Origin: Escherichia coli
Lineage (GTDB): Bacteria > Pseudomonadota > Gammaproteobacteria > Enterobacterales > Enterobacteriaceae
Length of the DNA: 1,088 nucleotides
Strand: one strand, 5' to 3'
NCBI RefSeq assembly: GCF_003334335.1
Contig: NZ_QOWQ01000122.1
This document shows positions 1 to 1,088 of the stretch, piece by piece; within the stretch, counting starts at the first letter, position 1; each line of letters starts with the position of its first letter. The notes below the pieces were generated by a model. That model was not told the origin of the DNA. It saw only the letters and a program-made list of their open reading frames with translations, and did not search any database. The position numbers were made by a program, and so were the translations under genes.

Positions 1-228
1 GTCACCACCGCCGACATTCTGACGCCACGACGCCGGGAGGATTACGGTAAGGACCTGTGGAGTGCTTATCAGACCATTCAGGAGAATATGCTGAAAGGCG
101 GAATTTCAGGTCGCAGCGCTAAAGGAAAACGTATCCATACCCGTGCCATTCACAGCATTGACACTGACATTAAGCTCAACCGCGCATTGTGGGTGATGGC
201 GGAAACCCTGCTGGAGAGCCTGCGCTGA
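1..228 (+). CDS. 3' end of an upstream CDS (75 codons, TGA stop at 226-228); conserved island protein, possibly DUF932/YfjQ-like
   Basis: Frame 1 is the only frame open across 1-225; frame 2 hits TGA at 20-22 and frame 3 hits TAA at 48-50. Translation ends ...GISGRSAKGKRIHTRAIHSIDTDIKLNRALWVMAETLLESLR*. It is co-directional with and sits 54 bp upstream of the antirestriction gene, where DUF932-type genes are often found in such islands. Product assignment is from memory of that synteny and is tentative; the 5' end lies outside the window. Confidence 0.55.
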   Translation, partial: VTTADILTPRRREDYGKDLWSAYQTIQENMLKGGISGRSAKGKRIHTRAIHSIDTDIKLNRALWVMAETLLESLR

Positions 229-270
229 TTCAGCCATTACCCTGAAAACCACGCATTTATTTGTCCTTTA

Positions 271-275
271 AGGAG
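271..275 (+). promoter_or_regulatory. Shine-Dalgarno (AGGAG) for the antirestriction gene
   Basis: AGGAG at 271-275, 7 nt upstream of ATG at 283-285. Confidence 0.6.
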
Positions 276-282
276 TCATTTC

Positions 283-768
283 ATGAAAACCATTTCACAT
301 AATTCCACCACATCTTCTGTTTCCGTAACCGCTGCATCAGGGAATGACCAGCCTCAGTTGGTTGCCACCCTCGTCCCTGATGAACAGCGCATCAGCTTCT
401 GGCCGCAGCATTTTGGCCTCATTCCACAGTGGGTGGCCCTGGAGCCCCGTGTTTTCGGCTGGATGGACCGTCTGTGCGAAGACTACTGCGGTGGTATCTG
501 GAATCTGTACACCCTGAACAACGGCGGGGCATTTATGGCCCCCGAACCGGATGACGATGATGACGAAACATGGGTACTGTTCAATGCCATGAACGGCAAC
601 CGCGCTGAAATGAGCCCGGAAGCCGCTGGCATTGCTGCCTGTCTGATGACGTACAGTCATCACGCCTGTCGTACGGAGTGTTATGCCATGACGGTCCATT
701 ATTACCGGCTGCGGGATTACGCCCTGCAGCATCCGGAATGCAGCGCCATTATGCGCATCATCGACTGA
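283..768 (+). CDS. klcA: Antirestriction protein, KlcA/ArdB family (YfjX/YafX-like), 161 aa, complete
   Basis: Complete ORF from ATG 283 to TGA 766-768 with a canonical SD. The translation (MKTISHNSTT...FWPQHFGLIPQWVALEPRVFGWMDRLCEDYCGGIWNLYTLNNGGAFMAPEPDDDDDETWVLF...) matches my memory of KlcA/ArdB-type antirestriction proteins from E. coli cryptic prophages and IncP plasmids. Which paralog (yfjX, yafX or other) cannot be decided from sequence alone; 'klcA' is used as the family name. Confidence 0.9.
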   Translation: MKTISHNSTTSSVSVTAASGNDQPQLVATLVPDEQRISFWPQHFGLIPQWVALEPRVFGWMDRLCEDYCGGIWNLYTLNNGGAFMAPEPDDDDDETWVLFNAMNGNRAEMSPEAAGIAACLMTYSHHACRTECYAMTVHYYRLRDYALQHPECSAIMRIID

Positions 769-770
769 AT

Positions 771-775
771 GGAGG
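771..775 (+). promoter_or_regulatory. Shine-Dalgarno (GGAGG) for the RadC-like gene
   Basis: GGAGG at 771-775, 8 nt upstream of ATG at 784-786; it lies directly after the klcA stop, suggesting translational coupling or close co-expression. Confidence 0.6.
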
Positions 776-783
776 CAGGGACA

Positions 784-1088
784 ATGCAGCAGCTTTCCTT
801 TCTGCCCGGAGAAATGACGCCCGGCGAGCGCAGTCTCATTCTGCGGGCTCTGAAAACCCTGGACCGCCATCTTCATGAACCCGGTGTGGCCTTCACCTCC
901 ACCCGTGCGGCACGGGAATGGCTGATTCTGAACATGGCGGGACTGGAGCGTGAAGAGTTCCGGGTGCTGTATCTGAATAACCAGAATCAGCTGATTGCCG
1001 GTGAAACCCTCTTCACCGGCACCATCAACCGCACGGAAGTCCATCCCCGGGAAGTGATTAAACGCGCCCTGTACCACAATGCCGCTGC
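784..1088 (+). CDS. RadC-like JAB-domain protein (YeeS/YfjY/YkfG family, UPF0758), 5' portion; continues past the window end
   Basis: ATG 784 with a good SD; frame 1 stays open to the window end. The translation MQQLSFLPGEMTPGERSLILRALKTLDRHLHEPGVAFTSTRAAREWLILNMAGLEREEFRVLYLNNQNQLIAGETLFTGTINRTEVHPREVIKRALYHNAA... matches the conserved RadC C-terminal-domain pattern (E-F-x-V-L-x-L-[DN], LF-x-GT, V-x-PREV-x-K-x-AL-x-x-NA). The metal-binding JAB motif would lie just beyond position 1088. Paralog identity is undetermined, so no gene symbol is given. Confidence 0.88.
   Translation, partial: MQQLSFLPGEMTPGERSLILRALKTLDRHLHEPGVAFTSTRAAREWLILNMAGLEREEFRVLYLNNQNQLIAGETLFTGTINRTEVHPREVIKRALYHNAA

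Follow-up and report, generated by a model that had tools for sequence, protein, structure and literature searches.

The closest described system to the gene analysed in this study is ArdB-CFT, which is ORF14 of the CFT073 pathogenicity island and is represented by PDB entry 2WJ9 (Serfiotis-Mitsa et al., 2010; PMC2836571). ArdB-CFT, the K-12 proteins YafX (prophage CP4-6) and YfjX/LfgA (prophage CP4-57), and KlcA of the IncP-1 plasmid pBP136 (KlcA136; PDB 2KMG) all relieve restriction by the Type I families IA–ID in vivo with negligible effects on modification, and the plasmid-borne ArdB and KlcA proteins are likewise characterised by anti-restriction without anti-modification (PMC2836571). 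The anti-restriction values reported against EcoKI were 9250 for YafX, 6160 for YfjX, 2430 for KlcA136, and 710 for ArdB-CFT, all obtained from uninduced plasmids with unmatched expression (PMC2836571, Table 2). EcoKI cleavage in vitro was inhibited by none of these four proteins at 20:1, and the EcoKI methyltransferase was not bound by KlcA136 (PMC2836571). For another member of the family, ArdB(R64), inhibition of the Bacillus Type I enzyme BlihIA in vitro was reported at a 30-fold molar excess (PMC12429846); the same protein was reported to bind DNA non-specifically, and a block of HsdR translocation was proposed (PMC10149784; PMC12429846). From a ΔD141 mutant of ArdB(R64), the conserved C-terminal Asp was reported to be required for activity (PMC12429846).

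Ocr and ArdA are also acidic proteins that counter Type I restriction, but they are elongated dimers whose carboxylates trace the DNA backbone, and they bind to the core of the methyltransferase and are active in vitro (PMC2836571; PMC3874165). In contrast, ArdB is globular, and no inhibition of EcoKI by it was seen in vitro. On the basis of 2WJ9 and 2KMG, a review described ArdB proteins as globular, without significant or conserved charged patches, and unlikely to be DNA mimics (PMC3874165).

The window, which is the whole 1,088-nt stretch of Escherichia coli DNA analysed here, contains a complete ardB gene of 161 codons plus a stop codon, lying between the incomplete ends of two other genes (Table 1). 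The translated product matched the Pfam family PF03230 (Antirestrict) over model positions 1–92 of 92 (E value, 3.2e-37). It could be aligned over its full length with the 2WJ9 chain (E value, 1.4e-99), which has the same PEPDDDDDET segment, and it was also aligned with 2KMG (E value, 4e-21). Matching genes in thousands of E. coli genomes carry the RefSeq label "antirestriction protein". As PF03230, 2WJ9, and the RefSeq annotation agree, the ORF at 283–768 is a genuine gene. Residues D161, S111, and E152 align with the C-terminal Asp and the S/E patch of the family (S88 and E133 in KlcA) and are at least 90% conserved (alignment A1). The profile match, the ArdB/KlcA fold, and the conserved C-terminal Asp with the S/E patch place the protein in the PF03230 family, and the ArdB/KlcA antirestriction identity given in the preliminary description of this DNA is borne out by the PF03230, 2WJ9, and 2KMG matches.

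Table 1. Coordinates of the features located in the 1,088-nt window.
Feature	Position (nt)	Strand	Basis
DUF932-family gene, 3' end	1..228	+	RefSeq annotation of the matching Nissle 1917 locus
Shine-Dalgarno-like AAGGAG	270..275	+	Read from the sequence, 7 nt 5' of the ATG at 283
ardB, ArdB/KlcA-family antirestriction protein, E. coli island type, lineage of CFT073 ORF14	283..768	+	ORF list, Pfam, PDB matches, RefSeq, AlphaFold2 (AF2) model
Beta strand before the loop, residues 83–87 (AFMAP), = KlcA136 strand C	529..543	+	DSSP on AF2 model, 2KMG alignment; strand names from PMC2836571
Acidic hairpin loop, E88-P-D-D-D-D-D-E-T96	544..570	+	DSSP on AF2 model, subfamily consensus
Penta-aspartate run, D90–D94	550..564	+	GAT GAC GAT GAT GAC
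Beta strand after the loop, residues 97–101 (WVLFN), = KlcA136 strand D	571..585	+	DSSP on AF2 model, alignment
C-terminal Asp161	763..765	+	Aligned with KlcA136 D142; ArdB(R64) D141 by C-terminal position
RadC-like JAB-domain gene, 5' part	784..1088	+	Nissle 1917 annotation; PF04002 (Pfam) match of the counterpart gene at related loci

The protein is nearly identical to ArdB-CFT from residue 26 onward, including PEPDDDDDET, and the two share the predicted fold and an island-type context. They differ in the N-terminal ~25 residues, where a 4-residue indel is found, and in a few other substitutions, none of which changes the loop. By analogy with the near-identical ArdB-CFT, the protein would be expected to counter Type I restriction in vivo while leaving modification almost unaffected. 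YafX and YfjX belong to the same subfamily and are encoded in the same order of genes (DUF932, ArdB gene, RadC-like JAB, DUF987, antitoxin/toxin pair). Unlike the query, with which they share 67–68% identity, they have a loop that is not homopolymeric and is two residues shorter. KlcA136 and the plasmid ArdB/KlcA proteins share the Pfam family, the fold, and the conserved C-terminal Asp with the query, whereas KlcA is only ~37–39% identical to it and has a short, non-acidic C–D loop (DLAGR). The negative charge of KlcA is instead found on strand D (E75 and E77), at the positions occupied by W97 and L99 in the query, and these plasmid-borne genes lie in a gene context other than that of the query.

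Protein lengths in the subfamily range from 152 to 161 aa or more. The N-terminus of the query (residues 1–24, nt 283–354) is Ser/Thr-rich and predicted to be disordered, with pLDDT below 50 for residues 1–20, and, given its 4-residue indel relative to ArdB-CFT, it varies more than the Asp run does.

The segment at nt 541–570 reads CCC GAA CCG GAT GAC GAT GAT GAC GAA ACA and encodes PEPDDDDDET, residues 87–96 of the 161-aa ORF. Translation of the ORF at 283–768 on the plus strand confirmed the earlier assignment of codons 550–567 (GAT GAC GAT GAT GAC GAA) to D5E at about residues 90–95, more exactly to D90–D94 and E95. Loop residues 88–96 hold 7 of the 20 acidic residues of the protein. When the residues of the same protein were shuffled 200,000 times, a run of at least five D appeared at a frequency of 5.5e-5 and a run of at least six D/E at 2.6e-4. 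Given this rarity in the shuffled sequences, the D5 run cannot be put down to composition.

The underlying DNA tract is short and imperfect; at a minimum score of 30, it was not called by Tandem Repeats Finder. Scans of the 1,088-nt window for promoters, terminators, and Rfam families gave no matches, and with all of these searches empty the tract was no longer considered as an RNA or regulatory element. An antisense ORF of 246 aa (337–1077, minus strand) extends over the greater part of ardB and the beginning of the JAB gene, and a shorter antisense ORF (483–632) reads the tract as poly-Ser (SSSSSS). The antisense ORFs across the tract were treated as spurious, since the homology support of the sense genes is overwhelming.

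The structure was modelled with AF2 from a 54-sequence alignment (mean pLDDT, 88.7; pTM, 0.82). A Foldseek search with this model retrieved 2wj9_B (E value, 7e-24; TM, 0.81/0.90) and 2kmg (E value, 9e-10; TM, 0.76/0.86), and the next match had an E value above 0.1. According to DSSP, residues 88–96 are unstructured and join the strands formed by residues 83–87 and 97–101. The mean pLDDT was 94 for residues 81–90 and 87 for residues 91–100, while the neighbouring blocks reached 94–97. The proposal that the run forms a loop thus agrees with the model, in which it lies between two strands and outside regular secondary structure; this position would leave the run solvent-exposed.

In the alignment with KlcA136, M66-A67-P68-D69 of KlcA corresponds to M85-A86-P87-E88 of the query, R73 corresponds to E95, and E75 and E77 of strand D are matched by W97 and L99. 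This alignment identifies the run as an insertion in the C–D loop. D69, E75, and E77 lie in or near the "glutamate cluster" of KlcA, and the most mobile part of KlcA extends from the end of strand C to helix 3 (PMC2836571). Because the equivalent stretch is the most mobile part of KlcA, the acidic loop is very probably exposed and flexible. The modelled residues of 2WJ9 number 138 in chain A and 145 in chain B, and superposition of the AF2 model on chain A gave at least 11 gap columns and an rmsd of 5.1 Å. This suggests that an internal segment of chain A is disordered or differently placed, and the acidic loop could be that segment.

The loop was then compared across homologues. KlcA136 and 19 distant representatives (36–53% identity) have a loop of about four residues that is not acidic, for example APDLAGRLE, APDSQETYD, and APEGEGEFH, and a few distant representatives carry unrelated insertions. 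In place of the R64 ArdB loop, which was left out of the comparison, two plasmid homologues (one IncF and one Klebsiella) were taken, and neither has an acidic loop. The acidic insertion is confined to the enterobacterial chromosomal-island ArdB subfamily, whose members are at least ~65% identical to the query.

Within this subfamily, nine residues separate MAP from the Trp in 46 of the 54 distinct loops, and the consensus is E-P-D-[D/E]-D-x-D-E-[K/T]. When only loops with at least two differences from EPDDDDDET are counted, D/E makes up 74–97% at positions 88, 90, 91, 92, 94, and 95. Position 93 varies freely (S, D, N, C, T, or R), and Lys, Ala, or Thr predominates at position 96. The central loop positions of the subfamily comprise 149 D, 33 E, 21 G, 18 N, and 16 S versus 2 V, 2 A, and 1 Y. 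This scarcity of hydrophobic residues is informative because a single substitution in GAT/GAC would be enough to give Val, Ala, Tyr, or His. The pure D5 form is found mainly in E. coli sequences, and in one metagenomic variant (P0052) DDDDDET is absent altogether. On the sequences compared, this pattern speaks against neutral drift and for constrained charge and length, and we infer purifying selection on the loop. The conservation of charge and length across genera shows constraint and is silent on what the loop does.

Length variation was probed with allele-specific queries of 48–54 nt against 5,426 complete E. coli genomes. For the allele type of the window (GAT GAC GAT GAT GAC), seed matches were obtained at 9,414 places, distributed over 4,218 genomes. 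A second D5 allele, (GAT)4GAC, coexists with it in E. coli and differs by synonymous changes only; it was found at approximately 700 places in approximately 667 genomes. About 80 of the 5,426 genomes carry a D4 allele, (GAT)3GAC, and the (GAT)4GAC and (GAT)3GAC alleles were verified on three loci and two further contigs. A DDNDD allele occurs in at least 17 genomes, and DDNDD is also present in P0013, which represents a very large protein cluster. In Klebsiella and Citrobacter, a D7 allele was observed (EPDGDDDDDDDEK, coded GAC GGC (GAT GAC GAC)x2 GAT), and the Klebsiella D7 contains a 9-nt tandem duplication, (GATGACGAC)x2. The K-12 loops, EPDNDET in YafX and DADGDDK in YfjX, are two residues shorter than that of the query.

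The two one-codon variants of the window tract itself that were searched for were absent from the 5,426 complete E. coli genomes: neither the D6 query (GATGACGATGATGATGAC) nor the D4 query (GATGACGATGAC) was found, and both gave gapped 94% matches to D5 only. The 12 records (D6 query) and two records (D4 query) of higher identity were partial matches with less than 80% coverage. The D4 allele (GAT)3GAC was seen only beside the (GAT)4GAC allele type (L008 and L010 versus L004, L005, and L009). Together with the two missing variants of the interrupted tract, this fits a repeat that the GAC interruption may stabilise. Slippage occurs, apparently in the purer (GAT)4 allele; the tract is nevertheless stable and is not a contingency-type repeat.

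The expectation that run length varies was therefore correct in one respect, as the run differs among homologues and paralogue lineages (PDNDE in YafX, ADGDD in YfjX, D4 in about 80 genomes, and D7 in Klebsiella and Citrobacter); the tract is not, however, notably mutable, given the missing D6 and D4 variants. A hypermutable, contingency-like simple-sequence tract that diversifies paralogues would be consistent with the D4 genomes and with the 9-nt tandem duplication in Klebsiella. However, copy number does not vary often among close strains as it would in a contingency tract, D5 predominates (~9,400 plus ~700 places), the tested D6 and D4 variants occur in 0 of 5,426 genomes, and Tandem Repeats Finder was empty. 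Moreover, every change is in-frame, and therefore does not switch the gene off. This reading is largely refuted, and we consider it extremely improbable.

The same alleles bear on another explanation, namely that the run is neutral low-complexity filler, a functionless by-product of codon slippage in a tolerant loop. Loops of the family do vary in length and composition (PMC2836571; our alignment), D4 and D7 alleles exist, P0052 has no run, and active homologues do without it. On the other hand, the 9-residue length and the acidity are kept in several genera despite sequence change while hydrophobic residues are almost absent, synonymous D5 alleles persist in thousands of copies, and the two one-codon variants of the window tract that were tested are missing from the E. 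coli genomes searched. Weighing these points, we regard neutral filler as unlikely.

The preliminary description had also proposed that the acidic run contributes to mimicry of, or interference with, DNA-binding restriction complexes. In its most explicit form, the loop would act as an electrostatic decoy or partial DNA mimic that imitates DNA phosphates, contacts a surface with which a Type I enzyme (e.g., its HsdR) binds or translocates DNA, and thereby aids anti-restriction directly. Seven carboxylates in nine loop residues, with acidity conserved in the subfamily, are consistent with such a role; the in vitro inhibition of BlihIA by ArdB(R64) makes direct action possible (PMC12429846), and the proposed HsdR translocation block points in the same direction (PMC10149784). 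However, ArdB-CFT, whose loop is identical, does not inhibit EcoKI at 20:1, KlcA136 does not bind the EcoKI methyltransferase (PMC2836571), and the globular fold has no significant or conserved charged patches (PMC3874165). In addition, ArdB barely alters modification, in contrast to the true mimics Ocr and ArdA. The AF2 model is a compact alpha/beta structure in which 20 of 161 residues are acidic, seven of them in one loop, and it lacks the elongated shape and carboxylate arrays of a DNA mimic; set beside Ocr and ArdA, the acidic run of the query is a single 9-residue loop. The acidic loop would not help DNA binding, and contact with a basic enzyme surface is conceivable.

The homologues without the run provide a further comparison. 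KlcA136 without an acidic loop and YafX and YfjX with shorter loops are as active as ArdB-CFT or more so in vivo, with expression unmatched (PMC2836571, Table 2), and the two plasmid homologues examined also have no acidic loop. The longest run (ArdB-CFT) goes with the lowest EcoKI value of the four, and activity therefore does not track run length. Overall charge is likewise independent of the run, with net values of −11 (query), −13 (YafX), and −15 (YfjX). These comparisons show that the acidic run is dispensable for anti-restriction, while the unmatched expression leaves room for an effect. The idea that the run is needed for activity thus finds no support in these assays. Absence of the run from active homologues, named in advance as evidence against a functional role, is found in part, in that YafX, YfjX, and KlcA136 are active, again with unmatched expression. 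Taken together, the published results lend no support to mimicry or interference, and a role of the loop as an electrostatic decoy appears improbable.

A composition as rich in Asp as this one could also indicate a divalent-cation site, in which the loop chelates Ca2+ or Mg2+ in the manner of DxDxDG loops and affects stability or oligomerisation. In the DxDxDG calcium-binding motif, Asp occupies positions 1, 3, and 5, and position 6 is always Gly. Composition is what recommends this reading, with D well conserved at positions 90, 92, and 94. However, the residue after D94 is E in 80–83% of the subfamily loops and G in less than 10%, in place of the glycine of the motif, and conservation at positions 91 and 95 equals that at 90, 92, and 94, so that no alternating pattern is seen. 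The loop is thus not of the DxDxDG calcium-binding type. No metal is mentioned for 2WJ9 in the literature consulted; the structure was phased with platinum according to the facility table in PMC2883930, which lists 2WJ9 without describing the structure. A cation site is accordingly considered very improbable.

The explanation that we favour, and hold as a whole to be moderately probable, is that the D5E run would be the E. coli form of a conserved, lineage-specific acidic loop of nine residues in the C–D beta hairpin of ArdB, with a role that is modulatory and outside the core mechanism. The loop would have arisen by insertion in the Enterobacterales chromosomal-island ArdB subfamily, which is marked by the order DUF932, ArdB, RadC-like JAB, and purifying selection would keep it hydrophilic and acidic. 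It would add local negative charge beside the face that bears the "glutamate cluster" in KlcA. It would lie outside the family-wide core for blocking Type I restriction and would not form a DNA mimic. Its role is most likely modulatory, possibly through local surface charge, solubility, or a subfamily-specific contact. The occasional changes in length are rare and would be due to slippage or duplication of GAT/GAC codons. Of the elements of this explanation, the identity of the protein, the place of the run between two strands of the model, its restriction to the subfamily, and the conserved length and charge are shown, whereas solvent exposure, selection, and the modulatory role are inferred.

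More specifically, the loop could determine the specificity of the island ArdB proteins by making a contact that plasmid ArdB and KlcA lack. Such a contact might be with a basic surface of translocating HsdR or with a co-encoded island protein, either the RadC-like JAB protease (LfgB in K-12) or the DUF932 protein. We consider this quite doubtful, yet if true it would give the ArdB copies of "cryptic prophages" a role beyond classical anti-restriction. The protein, the fold, and the exact loop were already known from 2WJ9, and anti-restriction by the family had already been measured. The ArdB literature consulted does not single out the loop, and the present addition is a modest one: the loop is recognised as a conserved acidic subfamily insertion and not as a random poly-Asp tract. 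It also offers a cheap and well-defined target for mutagenesis, and the existing data argue against it as the key to the ArdB mechanism.

The window shares 99.8% identity with E. coli chromosomes such as that of Nissle 1917, from which it differs in its 1,088 nt only at positions 370 and 372, which fall in one codon (CTC vs ATA) and give L30I. In Nissle 1917, the genes follow the order DUF932, ardB, RadC-like JAB, DUF987, and then the cbeA/cbtA antitoxin–toxin pair. Window-like copies were found at 13,090 places in 4,824 of the 5,426 complete E. coli genomes, 13,083 of these places being chromosomal versus seven on plasmids.

The gene located 3' of ardB in the window, whose ATG is preceded by GGAGG at 771–775, is a homologue of lfgB. 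In K-12, yfjX and yfjY of CP4-57 (L003, 5920–6869) are now annotated as lfgA and lfgB, and LfgB, a RadC-like JAB protein, has been reported to be a protease that cleaves the antitoxin MqsA (PMC10846083). The phenotype of an lfgA deletion could not be complemented and was attributed to polarity (PMC10846083).

A few loci, which form a very small sample, suggest that the acidic loop and the DUF932–ArdB–RadC gene order travel together. For distant homologues, gene context was informative in one case (P0177), and another (P0158) lies on a 556-nt contig. At one locus (L014, 4001–5592), an ArdB homologue of 48% identity without the acidic insertion is followed by a small ORF and then by DUF932. The same locus has no RadC-like gene, and genes for WYL and DUF3944 proteins are located upstream of the ArdB homologue.

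Public gene calls include an ArdB–RadC fusion of 275 aa (PF04002 and PF03230) and an ArdB with a PF03811 domain (P0104 and P0014), and many of the homologue representatives match only the first or last ~100 residues. These fusions and fragments look like frameshifts, assembly errors, or pseudogenes of a multi-copy module.
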